DNA of 64,000 nt from Eledone cirrhosa (taxonomy: Eukaryota), in NCBI GenBank assembly GCA_964016885.1, contig OZ024743.1, positions 345,650,001 through 345,714,000 of the forward strand. Reading direction: 5' to 3'. The notes under the pieces are model-generated. The model ran no database searches. It saw only the letters and a list, made by a program, of their open reading frames with translations, and had not been told where the DNA came from. The translations under genes and the position numbers were made by a program. Within the stretch, counting starts at the first letter, position 1; each line of letters starts with the position of its first letter. Below are positions 1,287 to 30,923 of this stretch, piece by piece.

Positions 1287-2169
1287 TATGTCTGTGTGTG
1301 TGTATAAACCACTACAATCTGCTGTAATTATGAATTCATTGATGTTTACTGCATAATATAACCACGTTGAAAGGTGGTGTGTGGGATTTACTATAGTAAA
1401 TGTTATGTGTGGCATTTGTTCAATTTTCTGTGAAGATTATGCCATTTAAAGTGCCAGTGCGCTTAGAGACATAAAATATGCTAGCGGACAAGCTTCCGCT
1501 TGGTCGCTCTATCTACTAGAAATAGCAGATCAATCTACCTATCTATTTTATTAAAAAGAGAAAAGACAGATCATATTACCATTTCCAGTGTCTCCAAGAT
1601 TGGGATGAGCAATATAATTAGTTAGTCAATGACTCGAGACAACGAAAACCGATGTTAAGGAACCCTAAGACACAGTTAATAGTTTAAAAAACGGTTGACA
1701 GATTAAAAGTACCGCCTAAAGAGAAGAACGGTCTCTGTCTACCAAATCTTCCATACAATTCGACCCGAAGCAATGATGTAATATATTTTCACACGAAGTC
1801 GAACAAAGGGATCGAAACACAAACCAGGTAACGGTGAATCGAACATTTCAATAACGCAGCCACGACTGCGTCCATAAACCTTAAGAAAGAAGAGGCCCAG
1901 TTCATGTTGGGCCTCTTCTTTCTTAAAGAAGAGGCTAAACAATAACAAAAGTTTGTAAACAAGCCAACATTTCCTATCCTACTTCATTTTAAATTTCTTC
2001 CACCAACATTAGGCACATTTGATTGTTCACAAGGAACTGAATCTCTCACATTGTTCGACTTTTTATCGTAAGTGGATATAGTGCCCTTAGTAACTGAATA
2101 ATTAATTATCACCCACTCTGTAGCACTTCAATGTATGAAACTGGTGCCTGAAAAAATGTCCGGATGTGT

Positions 2170-2346
2170 CTACATTTGGTACAAGGCCAGCAATTACTCA
2201 GTGCATTACTGGTGCTTTGTTTTACCGAAAGCGTAAGGATGAAAGGCCAAATTAACCTCGGCGCGATTTTAATTCAGAACGTAAAGGGCCATGACTCTAT
2301 GCTGCAAAGCATGGTGTGTGATGCACTACATATACTGCTAATCCAT
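2170..2346 (-). mobile_element. tRNA-derived SINE (family 1), diverged copy
   Basis: Reverse-complement match to the family best seen at 21110-21299, sharing ggatgaaaggc(c)aaa..aacctcggcg and cagtgcattactgg. Confidence 0.8.
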
Positions 2347-2869
2347 TAAAATCCAATCTTTATTAAAATTCCTTCTGTATTTAAAATTATTCTATTATAT
2401 TTTTCTGAGATTAATGTAAGGAAAGTCGTTCCAATGAAACACCGTTTTCATACAGCATCGTTTCGTTGAAATGTCGATTGAAGAAAAGTCGTGAGACTTA
2501 TAAATCTGAATGTAGAAAACAGTAAATGGGTTAAAAAAGTTTTTTGTGAGAGAATATTTATATAGTTAAACACATAAACACGTCAACGAGTATCACTTTG
2601 AGAAATGGAATGGTGATATAATAAAACTTTTTAATCTGTAATAGCAATACAACACACAGAATGCCAATTATTTGTTAGATTATTAAACAAAAGAGTCAAA
2701 ACTAATGTGAATTTGAATAATGTTGAAGAATAAAAAGTAATATATTCAACACACAATGTCTCGCAAAAAGTAAAGTCGAAATGTATATAAACCAAAGTAT
2801 ATATATGTGTTTGCATGTGTATGTGTGTGTGTGTGGAGAGAGAGAGAGGGGGGGAGGGGGGTTCTGTAA

Positions 2870-3700
2870 AAAAAAATATATTACGGGAAAGTAAAATTTG
2901 CTAGTGGGTGCCTTGCTGCCTATCCACTGTTCGAAGCCTGACTGAAATGCTTCTTCCAGAATGTCTCTTTACTCTTCAATCTCATTCCACATGATGCTCT
3001 CTGCTCTCAAATTGGGAGCATTTCTGTAGCGTTAGAAGGATTCAACATTAGCCTGGTAGATTTACGAAATGTCTCATCTTGGAAAGAATGCTAGGATCTG
3101 CGACGAAATGAGCCAGAGTGTTGTCCCAATGCAGATGCCACTATTGCGAAACCCGCAGATCCGAATTGCATCACGAACAAGTCTGAGAATATATGAGTCA
3201 TCGTTGTAACTGTTTGACTTTCTGGTGAGTAACCCTGATGTACAATACTTCAGTAGTCAACAGAAACAATCAGTATCACTTTCAATTTGCACCGCACATG
3301 ATGTTCTGTTTTAGAACTTGGTTACGTTGTATGCTTCCATTGTAATGACTGAGCTATAGTTACCGGATCGTGCCTGTACATCTACATCGCAATTCCAGTT
3401 TCCAGGCACCCTATCGAAATTATCAGGTGAAATAGTTATGCGAGGAGTAAGATATATAACATCTCACACACTGTCCGACTGACAGTGATTGACATAACCA
3501 TTCTGCACACCTTTATCTCCCGAACGACATTACTTCCTACCGGATTAAGCATTAATTTGGATACTTTTTGGAAAGACCTTATATATATTTTTTCGGCTCA
3601 CTGTCTAGCATCCAAACTCTGCATTTCATTCATTTGAGATATTTAGATAAAATCCTAGGAAATGGGTTTGTAGAATTCTTAATTCTTCCGACGTGATGTC
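2870..3700 (-). mobile_element. Decayed mariner (Tc1/mariner) transposase remnant
   Basis: Minus-strand translation at about 3110-3300 gives HVRCKLKVILIVSVDY*SIVHQGYSPESQTVT...ILRLVRDAIR...WHLHWDNTLAH. This matches the mariner motifs KVMLxVFFDxxGIVH, PxGQTVN and LHHDNAxxH. Stops and frameshifts are present and the ends are approximate. Confidence 0.8.
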
Positions 3701-4879
3701 TTAAGATATATCTTACGGTCTGAAATGTAACAGGTGCCAGTAAACTATTACCCTGAACAACAGATATGGCACGGGGAGAGAGAGGTTTACCGCATTGGTG
3801 ATTCCTAGACTTCTAAAAAAATAAATTAAAAACGCAGATCCATGATCTCAAGAGAATTGTGGAACCCCGAATCGGTAAACACGCAGTCTGGAGTGACATA
3901 CTATGAATCATACAAACACACAACTGTATGTATTAGTAATCATTATGTCTATAGTTCGATACCACTGCGTGGAATGTTAGGAAAGTGATGGTTATCACAA
4001 TCTTAGCTTGATCTATTCCTTCTGAGTGCACTTGTGTAGACGGAAACAGTATGGAAGCCCATCGGAGGGACTGTATCTCCAATTCAAAAGACAGCGTCTT
4101 CACGCTCCCAACACGATCAATATCCCTGTAAGTTGCGTAACGGTACTTATCTGTTCAAAATAGTAAGTCATGTATATATAGTTTGAAAAAAAAATCCAAA
4201 AATCATATTTCTTTTAAAAGCAAAATATTTACGGAGACGCAAGCTACATTATTTCTTTCAGTATTCTTAAATAATCAAACATTTTGAAGGAAATAACCTT
4301 TACATTTTCTTGGTCAGGTTCCAAAAGTGTTTCGAGTGTCTCCTTCACCTATAGCTCACATTTTCCTATTTATACACACACACACACATATATATATACA
4401 TATATATATATATTAAATGATGTTTAAATATATATGGATGTGAGTATGTGTGTGTGTGTGCGCTTATAAAAGAATGTGGTTTATGTTTATATGTATATGT
4501 ATGTATATATACACACATATATGCACAAAATTCTTTATACACACAAACATACACACACATATATAAATATATGTATGTATATATGTATGTATGTATGCAT
4601 GCATGTTTGTAAGTTTGCGGGTATGTATACATATATGGATGGATGGATAGATGAATGGATGTTCATGGCATTTACAGATGCCCTAAGATTATGTTAAAGT
4701 GAACACCGCTAGAGATGATATAAACCATTGCCATGAGTTATTGGTGCTGAAGTCTTGGGGAAAACTCTAGCATTGTTTATAAATGTTACCCTCAAGAGCA
4801 TTGCTCCCGAAATAAGGTTTATATGAGTGCGTGAATACTGTCTGCCTCTATGCATTAGTCAAATGTATATATTATAAAT

Positions 4880-6643
<1,764 letters not shown>

Positions 6644-7324
6644 AATCACGTTCATAAATACCTAGTGTGTATACATACACAAAATAGAAAATATTCCGAA
6701 TTGCCAACCGGTTCGTGAGAACAATTCTAAACTGAAAAGAATCGAGCTAGATTGTAGTAATGGCTACCTACTTTATCAAGAAGTGAAATTAATAGATATA
6801 TCAGCGTTGATTTTGCTACGGATTTTGAAATTGGGTAAGGATTAAATGAAAGTTATTGCTAACGATTTCACATTCTGAAATAATTCCCGTGAGCAACTCT
6901 TGTGAATTTAATGTGAGGTCTCGGAAAATAAAGCATTTCCTTGTATAACCACTTTGGTTAATAGTTCATTCATTATTCCTGTGGCGATAATACCATATGA
7001 AAATAATTTTTGTGTAATTTCCTTTCTACCACAGGAAAAAAGAACGAGCCAATAACTAAACTACTCATATAAAGAAATATGTCAGCTTATATAATGAGGG
7101 TTCTTCCTTTGCATGATAACTGTTATTGTATGATATATTCACAGATCCTGGTCCATTCAGAACTTGAATTAATGGCATATACATGTCGTATTATTGATAC
7201 TAAAAAGAAGAGGTTATTTACGGAAACTATAAATAAGTGATAAACTGTTAGTCGGTCCATATTGTTAGTTATTGCTATTTCATAACCTCGAATCAGTTAA
7301 GATTGGAGAAAACAATATTCATGT

Positions 7325-7527
7325 ATAACAAACACGCGGCTCCAAAGTTGGGTGGGGGAATATAATAGATTACACTGATTTAGTACATAACTGCTATTTT
7401 CATTTAATCGACCTCGAAAACGAGTAAGGTAAATTTAGCCCCAGTAGGATTTGAAATCACATTAAAACAAGCCGGAACGAATGAGCATTTTACCAACGCA
7501 TTAAAGATTCTGCCAATTCATCGGCAT
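7325..7527 (-). mobile_element. Highly diverged tRNA-derived SINE
   Basis: Residual motifs aatcgacctcgaaa..ggatttgaa..gattctgccaattc resemble family 1 in reverse. Confidence 0.55.
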
Positions 7528-7672
7528 TCAAAGATATTTGTAATAAAACGTAGCCCAATAATGACGAGCCTGATCTTTCAGAACTTACATCTAATGGTTG
7601 CTTTGTCTACCTCTTGTTCACTACCTTTTTTTGCTTTCGTTTTTCACAAAAGTACAAACTTCTACGCTTAAT

Positions 7673-16020: not shown

Positions 16021-16079
16021 GCTGTCTGATGAGGTCATAGCTGTTGAATAATGGTTATCACCGAAATATATATTACAGC
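16021..16079 (+). ncRNA. Type I hammerhead ribozyme
   Basis: GCTGT-CTGATGA-[GGT c ATAGCTGTT gaat AATGGTTAT c ACC]-GAAA-TATATA-TT-ACAGC. Helix I is 5 bp, helix II is long, helix III is palindromic, and the triplet is AUU. AATAAA and (TA)n follow. Confidence 0.85.
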
Positions 16080-17340: not shown

Positions 17341-17343
<3 letters not shown>

Positions 17344-17446
17344 CAAAGGAATTGTGGTAAGGAACCAGATGGACCATAATGCACCAGAGTCCAGAAATAG
17401 CCGTCGAAACGGCTTGAGCTCTGCCGTCGGGGTCATACTTTTTCCT
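17341..17446. mobile_element. Inverted mini-insertion of hammerhead family C within (TA)n
   Basis: 17341-17390 is the reverse complement of the 3' end at about 30274-30323. 17388-17446 matches about 30186-30245 directly. Confidence 0.85.
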
Positions 17447-17452
17447 ATATAT

Positions 17453-17580
<128 letters not shown>

Positions 17581-17625
17581 CGTAAAATAAGAAAATTATA
17601 AAATTAACTTACTTACTAAAATATC

Positions 17626-17707
17626 ACTTCCAACTAATTAGTTTCTGGAATGGAGTAAATATATTTTCCGAAGAAGATATGGAGAAACATTCCGTCCTCA
17701 GGGAAGT
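17626..17707 (-). ncRNA. Type I hammerhead ribozyme (family A)
   Basis: Minus strand: ACTTCC-CTGAGGA-c GGAATG...CATTCC a-GAAA-CTAATTAG-TT-GGAAGT. Confidence 0.85.
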
Positions 17708-17861
17708 CTATTCTCAGCTAAGTTTCCAGGCAAAGCGAGGACTCTGGAAACTTATTAAAAAATAATAATTCAGTCCACGCTTTGCTATTTCCTATCCACT
17801 GAATTATTTTTTAATAAGTTTCCAGAGTCCTCGCTTTGCCTGGAAACTTAGCTGAGAATAG

Positions 17862-17943
17862 ACTTCCCTGACGACGGAATGTTTCTCCATATCTTCTTCG
17901 GAAAATATATTTACTCCATTCCAGAAACTAATTAGTTGGAAGT
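17862..17943 (+). ncRNA. Type I hammerhead ribozyme (family A)
   Basis: ACTTCC-CTGACGA-c GGAATG..ATATCTTC ttcg GAAAATAT..CATTCC a-GAAA-CTAATTAG-TT-GGAAGT. Helix I is 6 bp, the helix II extension is capped by cUUCGg, and the triplet is GUU. Confidence 0.88.
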
Positions 17944-18109
17944 GATATTTTAGTAAGTAAGTTAATTTTATAATTTTCTTATTTTACGTCTCTCATATTA
18001 TTGTTCTGCAACCCCATGCATTGAACCACAATGTTACTAAGACAAAACCTATATATTTGCTAGCATTGATATGCATCTGTATGTATATATATGTTACTAG
18101 ATATTAATT

Positions 18110-18159
<50 letters not shown>

Positions 18160-18215
18160 GACGTAAAATAAGAAAATTTAAAAATTTAAAAATCAACTTA
18201 CTTACTAAAATGTTC

Positions 18216-18297
18216 ACTCCAACTAATTAGTTTCTGTAAGGGGATAAATATAGTTACGTAATATAACGATAGAGAAATCCTTACGACATCAGGGAGT
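18216..18297 (-). ncRNA. Hammerhead (family B), core mutated to CUGAUGU
   Basis: ACTCC-CTGATGT-c GTAAGG...CCTTAC a-GAAA-CTAATTAG-TT-GGAGT. Confidence 0.75.
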
Positions 18298-18746
18298 CTA
18301 TTCTCAGCTAAGTTCCCAGGCGATGCGCGGACATTAGGAACCCATATAAAAATAATAATTCAGTGGATGGAATAAAGCTAACGAGGACTAAATTCCAGAG
18401 CACTGAAAAAATTCACTTCCTCTGGTCAGTGGCAGATTCTAAAGAATCAATCACGTGACATTGAGGTTAATCAGTTAGGAGCGGAGTGGTAATATGACAA
18501 GAGCCTACTACTACCATGAATCAGCAGTAAATTTTGGCAAGTTTTGCTCAACAAATAATTTGGAGATAAATAAAGAGAATTAGTACATCTACCAACATAT
18601 GTGTACAGATGCACACCCATGCTAGCAAATATATATGTTATGTCTTAGTACCTTTGTGGTTCTATGCAGGGGGATGCAGAACAATTATATGAAAGACGTA
18701 AAATAAGAAAATTTTAAGAATTAAAAATCAACTTACTAAAATTTTC

Positions 18747-18828
18747 ACTCCAACTAATTAGTTTCTGTAAGGGGATAAATATAGTTACGTAATATAACTA
18801 TAGAGAATTCCTCACGTCATCAGGTAGT
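18747..18828 (-). ncRNA. Hammerhead (family B), intact core
   Basis: ACTAC-CTGATGA-c GTGAGG...CCTTAC a-GAAA-CTAATTAG-TT-GGAGT, with one helix I mismatch. Confidence 0.8.
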
Positions 18829-19264
18829 CTATTCTCAGCTAAGTTCCCAGGCGATGCGCGGACACTAGGAACCCATATACAAATAATAATTCAGTTCTGC
18901 ATCCCTCTGCATAGAACCACAAATGTACTAAGACATAACATATATATTGGTAGATGTACACATATGTTGGTAGATGTACTAATTCTCTATATTTATCTCC
19001 AAATTATTTGTTAAGCAAAACTTGCCAAAATTTACTGCTGATTCATGGTAGTACTAGGCTCTTGTCATAATACCACCCCGCTCCTAACTGATTAACCTCA
19101 GTGTCACGTGATTGATTCTTTAGAATCTGCCACTGACCAGGGACAGTGAATTTTTTCAGTGCTCTGGAATTTAGTCCTCGCTAGCTTTATTCCATCCACT
19201 GAATTATTATTTTTATATGGGTTCCTAGTGTCCGCGCATCGCCTGGGAACTTAGCTGAGAATAG

Positions 19265-19345
19265 ACTCCCTGATGACGTAAGGAATTCTCTATAGTTATA
19301 TTACGTAACTATATTTATCCCTTACAGAAACTAATTAGTTGAAGT
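19265..19345 (+). ncRNA. Hammerhead (family B), intact core
   Basis: ACTCC-CTGATGA-c GTAAGG..TATAGTTA tattacg TAACTATA..CCTTAC a-GAAA-CTAATTAG-TT-GAAGT, with one helix I mismatch. Confidence 0.82.
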
Positions 19346-19798
19346 GAAAATTTTAGTAAGTAAGTTGATTTTTAATTTTTAAAATTTTCTTATTTTACGT
19401 CTTTCATATAATTGTTCTGCATCCCCCTGCATAGAACCACAAAGCTACTAAGACATAACATATATATTTGCTAGCATGGGTGTGCATCTGTACACATATG
19501 TTGGTAGATGTACTAATTCTCTATATTTATCTCCAAATTATTTGTTGAGCAAAACTTGCCAAAATTTACTGCTGATTCATGGTAGTAGTAGGCTCTTGTC
19601 ATAATACCACCCCGCTCCTAACTGATTAACCTCAGTGTCACGTGATTGATTCTTTAGAATCTGCCACTGACCAGAGGCAGTGAATTTTTTCAGTGCACTG
19701 GAATTTAGTCCTCGCTAGCTTTATTCCATCCACTGAATTATTATTTTTATATGGGTTCCTAATGTCCGCGTATCGCCTGGAAACTTAGCTGAGAATAG

Positions 19799-19879
19799 AC
19801 TTCCGACGACCTAAGGAATTCTCTATAGTTATATTACGTAACTATATTTATCCCCTTACAGAAACTAATTAGTTGGAGT
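19799..19879 (+). ncRNA. Hammerhead (family B), degenerate core
   Basis: Same position in the monomer; core reads CCGACGA; GAAACTAATTAGTTGGAGT is intact. Confidence 0.65.
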
Positions 19880-20058
19880 AAGTAAGTTGACTTTTAATTT
19901 TTAAAATTTTCTGATTTTACGTCTTTCATATAATTGTTCTGCATCCCCCTGCATAGAACCACAAAGGTACTAAGACATAACATATATATTTGCTAACATG
20001 GGTGTGCATCTGTACACATATGTTGGTAGATGTACTAATTCTCTCTCTCTCTCTCTCT

Positions 20059-20095
<37 letters not shown>

Positions 20096-20189
20096 GAACG
20101 ATCGACTTTCGTCAAATCGGACCGAGCGAACAATGTTTCCGTTGGTCTTTCCAATTGCTAGTACTATCTATCGGTCGCAACTCCAGGTA

Positions 20190-20308
20190 GAAGGAGCAAC
20201 GTGAAATAAAGTGTCTTGCTCAAGGACATAGCGCATCGCCTGGTCCAGGAATCGAACTCACAACCTTACGTTTGCGAATCCAATTCTCTAACCACTCCGC
20301 CACATGCC
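20190..20308 (-). mobile_element. tRNA-derived CORE-type SINE head (family 2)
   Basis: Minus strand: A-box TGGCGGAGTGG, B-box GAGTTCGATTCC, then CORE-like GTCCTTGAGCAAGACACTT. Confidence 0.85.
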
Positions 20309-21062: not shown

Positions 21063-21108
<46 letters not shown>

Positions 21109-21109
21109 T

Positions 21110-21299
21110 AATAATTGTTTCTACTTTAGGCACCAGGCCAGCAAATACCCAGTGCATTACTGGTACTTATTTTATCGACCCCATAAGGATGAAAGGCAAA
21201 GTCAACCTCGGCGGGATTTGAACTCAGACCGTAAAGGGACGTAACTATGGTGGAAAGCATGGCGTCCGACCCTCTACCGATACTGCCAATCCACCGCCC
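21110..21299 (-). mobile_element. SINE family 1, near full length
   Basis: Minus strand: GGCGGTGGATTGGCAGTATCGGTAG (A-box), GAGTTCAAATCC (B-box), AATTATT tail. A 3' fragment is adjacent at 21314-21420. Confidence 0.9.
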
Positions 21300-21452
21300 T
21301 AATATATATATATAATAATTGTTTCTATTTTAGGCACAAGGCCAGCAATTACCCATTGCATTACTGGTACTTTATTTTATCGAGCCCGTAAGAATTAAAG
21401 GCAAAGTCAACCTCGGCAGGAAACAAAAGATAGTTATTTTAGATCATCTCTA

Positions 21453-21670: not shown

Positions 21671-21819
21671 CAGGTACACATACATATATGCACGCATCGG
21701 TTTAGCGGACGCTTATTATAACGCCGCTTTGTTCGTTTGTCAACAAACTGAACAGCCTGAATTTATGCCATACGGTGTTAAGGCAACCACGTCACCTTTT
21801 TGTTCAACACTGACACAGG

Positions 21820-21864
21820 AACGATGTACTAGTTTCAAGCTTGTTAGCTATCATCAGCACCGTT
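21820..21864 (-). ncRNA. Minimal type I hammerhead (family D)
   Basis: AACGGTG-CTGATGA-t AGCT aaca AGCT t-GAAA-CTAG-TA-CATCGTT. Confidence 0.88.
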
Positions 21865-22098
21865 TACCCATCTGCCAGATAGTTGAACGTTCGAAAGTAT
21901 ATACTTTCCTTATGAAAATTAACGGCTGAGCAGCCTAATTTGCATATTGAGTGAGTTAAATCGGTCAGGCATACCGAAAACGATAAGTTGAAAAAAATGA
22001 AAACGAAATTTCATTTCTCACTCTTAGTATGGCACTTACCTAAATGTAAGTATGTATGTATACGTACATACATATATGTATACAGACGTACAGTAGCA

Positions 22099-22172
<74 letters not shown>

Positions 22173-22352
22173 CAGGCACACATATATATATTCACGTATC
22201 AGTTTATCTAACATTTATTATAACGTTCGCTTTGTTCGTTCGGTGCGCCTGGCTGACTGAACTCACTCGATATGCAAATTAGGCTGCTCAGCCGTTAATT
22301 TTCATAAGGAAAGTATATACTTTCGAACGTTCAACCATTTGGCAGATGGGTA

Positions 22353-22397
22353 AACGGTGCTGATGATAGCTAACAAGCTTGAAACTAGTACATCGTT
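22353..22397 (+). ncRNA. Minimal type I hammerhead (family D)
   Basis: Identical to 21820-21864: 7-bp helix I, ACUAGU palindrome in place of helix III, GUA triplet. Confidence 0.88.
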
Positions 22398-22689
22398 CCT
22401 GTGTCAGTGTTGAACAAAAAGGTGACGTGGTTGCCTTAACACCGTATGGCATAAATTCAGGCTGTTCAGTTTGTTGACAAACGAACAAAGCGGCGTTATA
22501 ATAAGCGTCCGCTAAACTGATGCGTGCATATATGTATGTGTACCTGTATGTATATATATATATATATATATATGCATGCTACTGTACGTCTGTATACATA
22601 TATGTATGTACGTATACATACATACTTACATTTAAGTAAGTGCCATACTAAGAGTGAGAAATGAAATTTCGTTTTCATTTTTTTCAACT

Positions 22690-30485: not shown

Positions 30486-30862
30486 GCAGTGGATTGGCAG
30501 TATCGGTAGAGGGTCGGGCGCCATGCATTGAAGCATAGAGTTACCTAACTTTATGATCTGAGTTCAAATCCCGCCGAGATTAACTTTGCCTTCCATCATT
30601 ACGAGGTCGATGAAATAAAGTACCAGTAATGCACTGGAATAATTGCTGGCCTGGTGCCAAAAGTAGAAACAATTATATGCGATGGATTGGCAGTATCGGA
30701 AGAGGGTTGGACGCCATGCTTTGATGCATAGAGTTACGGCCCTTGCCATTCTGAGTTCAAATCCCGCCGAGGTTAACTTTGTCTTTCATCCTTACGAGGT
30801 CGATATAATAAAGTACCAGTAATGCACTGGGTATTTGCTGGCCTTGTGCCAAAAGTAGAAAC

Positions 30863-30866
<4 letters not shown>
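30486..30866 (+). mobile_element. Two tandem SINE family 1 copies
   Basis: TGGATTGGCAGTATCGG and GAGTTCAAATCC occur twice. TTATATGCG at 30477 and 30673 looks like a TSD of the first copy. Confidence 0.88.

Positions 30867-30923
<57 letters not shown>

Follow-up and report, generated by a model that had tools for sequence, protein, structure and literature searches.

The window, that is the whole 64,000-nt stretch of DNA from Eledone cirrhosa analysed here, contains at 18154-20060 one head-to-head insertion into (TA)n, composed of 1.4 + 2.2 units of about 530 nt (Table 1). The first-pass annotation of this DNA had described a tandem, non-coding array with a minus and a plus arm, microsatellite flanks and different end points for the two arms. 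This description is borne out: the units are 92-97% identical, no frame of at least 100 amino acids overlaps the array, its flanks are (TA)21 on one side (left) and a (CT) run and then (AT)15 on the other (right), and the left arm stops at a short (S) site and the right arm at a long (L) site. The adjoining insertion of subfamily B at 17571-18121 had been missed.

Table 1. Features of the two adjoining insertions (window positions; cleavage sites are predicted)
Feature	Position	Strand	Details
Subfamily B insertion, head-to-head, separate	17571-18121		523-nt unit, 78% identical to A
Subfamily B minus arm	17571-17766	-	ends at S
Subfamily B plus arm	17767-18121	+	ends at L
Subfamily B hammerhead site	17632	-	U7->G
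Subfamily B hammerhead site	17937	+	intact
(TA)21 left flank	18113..18155	.	common to the adjoining subfamily B insertion
Left arm, subfamily A	18895->18154	-	1.4 units (143 + 531 + 68 nt)
Left arm 3' end	18154	-	S site, unit position ~68-70, runs into (TA)n
Left arm 5' end	18895	-	unit position ~392
Hammerhead	18216..18297	-	core change A9->U; predicted site 18221
Hammerhead	18747..18828	-	intact core, single stem I mismatch; predicted site 18752
Head-to-head inversion junction	18886..18895	.	arms overlap briefly
Right arm	18894->~20045	+	2.2 units (447 + 534 + ~170 nt)
Right arm ends		+	unit position ~70-74 (5' end) and L site at unit position ~182 (3' end)
Type I hammerhead	19265..19345	+	intact core, single mismatch in stem I; GUU cleavage predicted after 19340
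Full unit between two successive cleavage sites	19341..19874	+	534 nt, reference A
Internal 'tail' copy, S site to L site	19410..19525	+	~115-122 nt across subfamilies; contains covarying hairpin
Degraded hammerhead	19799..19879	+	2-nt deletion at stem I/core and stem II mismatch; predicted site after 19874
(CT)n run at L end, then (AT)15	20041..20091	+	(AT)15 at 20061-20091; internal template has CTCT only

Copies of the motif GAAACTAATTAGTT end at +19340, +19874, -18752 and -18221. A type I hammerhead had been assigned to every unit, at 18216, 18747, 19265 and 19799. Four hammerheads are indeed present, the GUU site after 19340 is correct and the four positions match as the left edges of stem I, but every copy carries a defect relative to the family. 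The architecture comprises a long stem II with a C.A opposition instead of a pair at its foot (position 10.1-11.1), a palindromic stem III of 3 bp and cleavage at GUU as predicted. The core CUGANGA...GAAA...UH and the three helices of a type I hammerhead are found, with 98% of the cells paired in an alignment of 28 family copies. In stem II of these 28 hammerheads one position occurs as four pair types and another as two, and 29 cells show two-sided changes. None of 500 shuffles reached this level, in a test that is inflated by the relatedness of the sequences, and slid controls dropped to 27-55% paired. Stem III and its flank are uninformative, because the search pattern fixed them in 24 of the 28 rows.

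An Rfam search at gathering thresholds gave no match. When folded locally, the copies reach z-scores of no more than -0.2 to -1.1, which is weak, and only two of six have the three-way junction as their minimum free energy structure; the ribozyme assignment therefore rests on the core motif and on covariation. From these, the element is predicted to be a self-cleaving type I hammerhead. The short palindromic stem III suggests weak, dimer-dependent cleavage (PMC4209133). Nine predicted Xenopus retrozyme dimers have been tried in vitro, of which one is reported to have cleaved (bioRxiv 10.64898/2026.07.22.740005).

Several other repeats were seen. At 21717-22500 (on to about 22690) another hammerhead repeat, with cores at -21857 and +22360, is arranged head-to-head around a TA run; it matches 22 of the 266 genomic sequences compared and is probably another passenger family of the Penelope-like element (PLE) type. 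Hammerhead-like motifs of type I lie in unrelated sequences, each near a TA run, at 16026 (+), 16387 (-) and 43567 (+), matching 2, 6 and 7 of the 266 sequences, respectively, and an element of about 100 nt between TA runs (17343-17445) occurs in 64 of them. The repeats adjoining TA runs at 20092-20300, 21108-21420 and 30490-30870 are presumably SINE-like. L107 (5700 and 6159) and L263 contain further hammerhead tandems, whose periods are about 460 nt and whose sequence is unrelated to the ~530-nt family.

Searching the genome (3.0 Gb), we found 12,359 exact copies of a hammerhead 17-mer that spans stem III and the cleavage site, and none of its reversed control; hence the motif is not due to chance. 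The 534-nt unit itself gave at least 179 matches on many contigs (40 scored of 3,105 candidates). The array thus belongs to a family dispersed throughout the genome, and not to a single local duplication, the alternative that the first-pass annotation had kept in view when it proposed a count of the copies. We used a position-ordered sample, comprising the first 100 listed places of the 17-mer in the first 45 Mb of contig 1; these fall into 61 stretches, or 59 after removal of two duplicates. Scaling up from this sample, we infer about 7,000 loci genome-wide. Before counting, L133 (the same locus as L132) and L139 (a duplicate of L138) were removed; L138 and L207 have common flanks, so that their independence is uncertain. 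A further set, the A set, had been selected for containing a full unit and was left out of the test on 5' ends.

Among 21 full units of the position-ordered sample the length is 522-571 nt and the identity to A or B 69-96%, and the GC content of the unit is 34-38%. Several subfamilies that are only 70-80% alike keep both unit length and hammerhead. Forty copies of subfamily B are 99-100% identical over 349 nt. In three sequencing runs of unspecified kind from one study, about half of the words of the unit are present, which speaks neither for nor against its expression. A young subfamily B array of 11 units, 99-100% identical, was observed at L086 (G000:C5:11372000-11381500, at 1383-7654); it is bounded by S and L ends and has an exact fold-back junction at unit position 121.

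Tandem hammerhead units that lack an ORF, have a low GC content and form a dispersed multi-copy family are the marks of a non-LTR retrozyme, and the annotation of the array as a repeat of this kind is upheld. As in the metazoan non-LTR retrozymes of PMC7229834, we find ORF-less tandems with one type I hammerhead per unit in thousands of copies, and a GC content below 45%. In contrast to these, the Eledone unit is longer (522-571 nt versus about 170-400 nt), and most of its loci are short, scattered insertions that show inversions and have fixed ends; moreover, cleavage and circles were demonstrated there, whereas they are hypothetical in the Eledone repeat. The unit had been called longer than known retrozymes, yet consensus lengths of 51-972 bp are given in bioRxiv 10.64898/2026.07.22.740005, by which its length would be unexceptional.

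Rolling copying had been expected to leave permuted ends. Instead, each arm has its 3' end at one of two fixed sites: among the arms of the position-ordered sample, 47 stop at S, 46 at L and 7 elsewhere, i.e. 93 of 100 at fixed sites. S lies about +60 to +90 after the cleavage position and L about +170 to +210. Both are homologous across subfamilies and coincide with short TA-like words; the distance between them is about 115-122 nt, and they enclose a covarying hairpin. A TA run follows 87 of the 93 ends, compared with 702 of 4,770 background positions (15%). Of the exact S sites in the whole genome, 3,971 are directly followed by TA and 7,428 are read through.

Head-to-head arms were found in 34 of the 59 position-ordered loci, the other 25 having no such pair. 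Over all 139 loci there are 99 head-to-head pairs, both ends being canonical in 81; 75 of these combine S with L and six are S+S, a few of which represent internal switch pieces, whereas L+L pairs were never seen (p 1.5e-16 against 50%, all sets). The position-ordered set alone gives 27 S+L pairs among 29 canonical ones. The 5' ends are scattered, and at the inner junction the arms overlap by 0-10 nt in 75 of the 99 pairs. A candidate target-site duplication of about 15 nt was seen at L056 only, duplications being unreadable within TA. Taken together, 5' truncation, head-to-head inversion and a microsatellite target, the hallmarks of PLE-type insertion, are all present, and the fixed S and L ends, as read from the junctions, are the known PLE 'tail' signature.

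For PLE insertions, 5' truncation, a frequent inverted copy and a tail of 30-40 bp, as a rule on one end, have been reported (Craig 2021; Arkhipova 2013, PMC3846280); the tail of the Eledone unit is about three times as long. Like EN+ PLEs (the local Neptune-type elements; Poseidon PAc, PMC11167929; Naiad, Craig 2021), the unit has two 3' ends with a one-sided tail, head-to-head inverted arms, 5' truncation and TA targets. Unlike them, it has no ORF, and its tail measures about 115-122 nt instead of 30-50 nt; Naiads, as described by Craig 2021, have no hammerheads. Another comparable case is Chlamys-N4 of Chlamydomonas (PMC9977147), likewise a non-autonomous PLE with microsatellite insertion and 5' truncation, which belongs to another clade, uses another target and has a known autonomous partner; most Chlamys elements are described as lacking hammerheads (Craig 2021).

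The same genome harbours at least five autonomous PLE families. All four that were compared with Pfam have a reverse transcriptase (RT) and three also a GIY-YIG domain, and the cysteine linker that precedes the endonuclease in the local families fits a Neptune/Nematis type as described in Craig 2021. Three of the families visibly have two end sites that run into TA, spaced by 35-50 nt; L121 represents a head-to-head S+L pair of an autonomous family. The hammerhead of the L109/L121 family also resembles that of the unit in its palindromic stem III and in the unpaired base pair where stem II begins at its foot. Since its ends match this local two-end pattern, the repeat behaves as a PLE passenger with an unusually long tail. 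Long open frames of Neptune type were noted at L106 (2809-5622, -), L108 (775-4062, +) and L109 (3222-5129, -); the L106 family has been active recently, as its copies are about 97% identical. The U3-A8 variant of the hammerhead core, described in PMC4209133, apparently occurs, as judged by eye, in two autonomous families (the repeat upstream of L106; L256 and related loci).

We consider it likely that the locus represents an insertion of an abundant ORF-less tandem hammerhead repeat, a retrozyme that was copied into TA-rich DNA by the borrowed RT and endonuclease of a PLE, probably of Neptune type. Arrays would be transcribed into multimers, whose hammerheads, with their 3-bp palindromic stem III and GUU site, would cleave weakly and probably as dimers, yielding part-cleaved multimers and perhaps circles. 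A PLE protein would then bind the tail region and nick both strands of a TA target, one cDNA being primed at L and the other at S on RNA from one source. The two truncated cDNAs would be joined by short microhomology, the enzyme often stuttering at initiation, and arms of more than one unit may later be extended by local unequal exchange. It has been shown that a Poseidon protein, once purified, can cut AT-rich DNA on both strands and extend them, that its RT starts at two internal RNA sites bounding the tail, and that hammerhead cleavage is dispensable for its insertion in vitro (PMC11167929).

Which template the enzyme copies can be discussed separately. The units might be excised and circularise, with rolling reverse transcription of the monomeric circle as the main route to multimers; this route can be reconciled with priming by a PLE at S and L, differs in the template only, and is one that we regard as a real possibility without favouring it. 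At least two cleavage sites are crossed by 21 of 93 arms, and arrays reach about 9 (L021) and 11 (L086) units, which calls for templates of more than one unit, for circles or for duplication at a later stage. For the circle speak these long arms, the 99-100% identical units of L086 between S and L ends, 34 rare variants present in every covering copy of their locus, and the conservation of unit length and hammerhead across the diverged subfamilies. Units also fold well as circles (z -4.2 to -6.3, 12 shuffles each), and related coral, mussel and axolotl repeats are reported to yield circles (PMC7229834). On the other hand, 36 of 70 rare shared variants are absent from some covering copies of their locus, L002 fits a single unequal exchange, and L021 and L086 show periods of 3 and 4, respectively; these patterns point to later duplication or mixed templates. 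Moreover, 5' ends are mildly enriched at +1 to +25 past the cleavage site, where a circle has no end (11 of 93 versus 4.3 expected, p 0.004, in a window chosen post hoc; 7 of 50 in subfamily B, p 0.008), a hint that linear templates were cleaved there or that the RT stalls at the ribozyme.

Two further measures were set aside as tests of circularity. Sharing of variants, per 100 nt, is 0.66 within loci versus 0.13 between loci in subfamily A and 0.30-0.55 versus 0.06 in B, i.e. about fivefold higher within loci and across both arms. Because these variants are common to both arms, both stem from one source lineage; the measure failed to separate a circle from a linear multimer. The circular-folding z-scores reflect hairpins rather than circularity. 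By analogy with the repeats of PMC7229834 a circular template is plausible, and the genomic data do not require one.

The units might also be orphan, 5'-truncated debris of the pseudo-LTRs (pLTRs) of an ORF-bearing PLE, with tandems arising only from local duplication. PLE insertions are indeed heavily 5'-truncated and give tandem and inverted pLTRs (Craig 2021), and Xenopus retrozymes are reported to be homologous to pLTRs (bioRxiv 10.64898/2026.07.22.740005). However, in 141 loci the sequence upstream of a unit proved to be a further unit, an inverted arm or flank. PLE-like protein matches occur in 12 of these loci, and the two of the 12 that are co-oriented without an intervening opposite arm have their own UTR and end. 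Several subfamilies each retain the ORF-less period. A GIY-YIG scan gave 10,596 candidates, of which 150 were scored and 85 loci examined, and at none of these 85 endonuclease loci does the unit form the terminal repeat of an ORF-bearing PLE, as the first-pass annotation had thought worth checking; because they are a small share of the total, a rare parent element could be missed. Nor does the unit itself have an RT and GIY-YIG ORF between pLTRs, as an autonomous PLE has. We therefore judge this origin improbable.

Unit copies near a PLE ORF were found at L078, L114 and L218, and each was rejected as a partner. The copies at L078 and L218 are separate insertions: at L078 the copy is inverted and lies within the TA run past that family's own end, and at L218 it is joined near the family's end at unit position 424. 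Other members of the L114 family lack it (by alignment only). The unit has no detectable sequence homology to the pLTRs of the local PLEs; its local alignment to two pLTRs was not above shuffles, and the similarity of its S end to four PLE families (best p 0.02-0.05, 20 uncorrected tests) is not significant after correction for 20. A foldback or MITE-like DNA element, or a satellite, in which the hammerhead is incidental would account for inverted arms, TA targets, the missing Rfam match and weak local folding, but is very improbable given that the hammerhead covaries, the position of the inner junction varies, a head-to-head pair is missing from 25 of 59 loci, and the arm ends, because S and L differ, are not terminal inverted repeats.

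The long ends of the repeat show a further peculiarity. The A-like subfamilies have CTCT at their internal L site; in these, 3-30 CT units stand at 32 of 57 terminal L sites versus none of 57 internal sites. In other subfamilies CT runs were found at 3 of 39 terminal L sites, where the search pattern caught only part of the B ends. This gain of (CT)n in sequence suggests stuttering reverse transcription. Paralogous empty sites were found for four of 132 loci compared. At L052, L205 and L056 the empty site has little TA and the filled site long TA on both sides, while at L135 TA is present already in the empty site. The first three loci suggest repeat addition at insertion, though the TA could also have expanded later and the numbers are small. 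On a bolder reading, the insertions would be junction-level proof that PLE enzymes paste animal retrozymes by paired priming of both strands at two fixed RNA sites, and the RT, a relative of telomerase, would in addition stutter at initiation and thereby create (CT)n and (TA)n tracts anew, making the elements a source, and not just users, of the very dense microsatellites of this genome. As a whole, we think this reading rather unlikely.

The retrozyme class and its proposed PLE origin are already in print (PMC7229834; bioRxiv 10.64898/2026.07.22.740005). PLEs were proposed as the mobiliser of metazoan retrozymes in PMC7229834, and Li, Clavereau and Pollet (bioRxiv 10.64898/2026.07.22.740005) conclude, as we do, that retrozymes are non-autonomous PLE derivatives. 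They argue from co-occurrence and from homology to pLTRs, for the most part in vertebrates, whereas our evidence is junctional, with no homologous pLTR found; insertion-junction analysis is absent from the available part of their preprint. Our literature search, which covered titles, the beginnings of abstracts and selected passages, found no description of this repeat family, of a cephalopod retrozyme or of a retrozyme junction analysis; an entry for the family may exist in supplements or in Repbase/Dfam.

Since the class is known and the locus a decayed copy, the value of the finding lies in the family. The mobility of animal retrozymes has so far been a hypothesis backed by co-occurrence and pLTR homology; this family offers thousands of readable junctions that bear the PLE tail signature, so that the mechanism of mobilisation becomes directly testable. 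For work with PLE proteins in vitro, the unit provides a natural template that is short and has its two priming sites mapped, and its family gives a route to ask whether a circle or a part-cleaved multimer serves as the template. If the stutter is real, it would link a telomerase-related RT to the birth of microsatellites.
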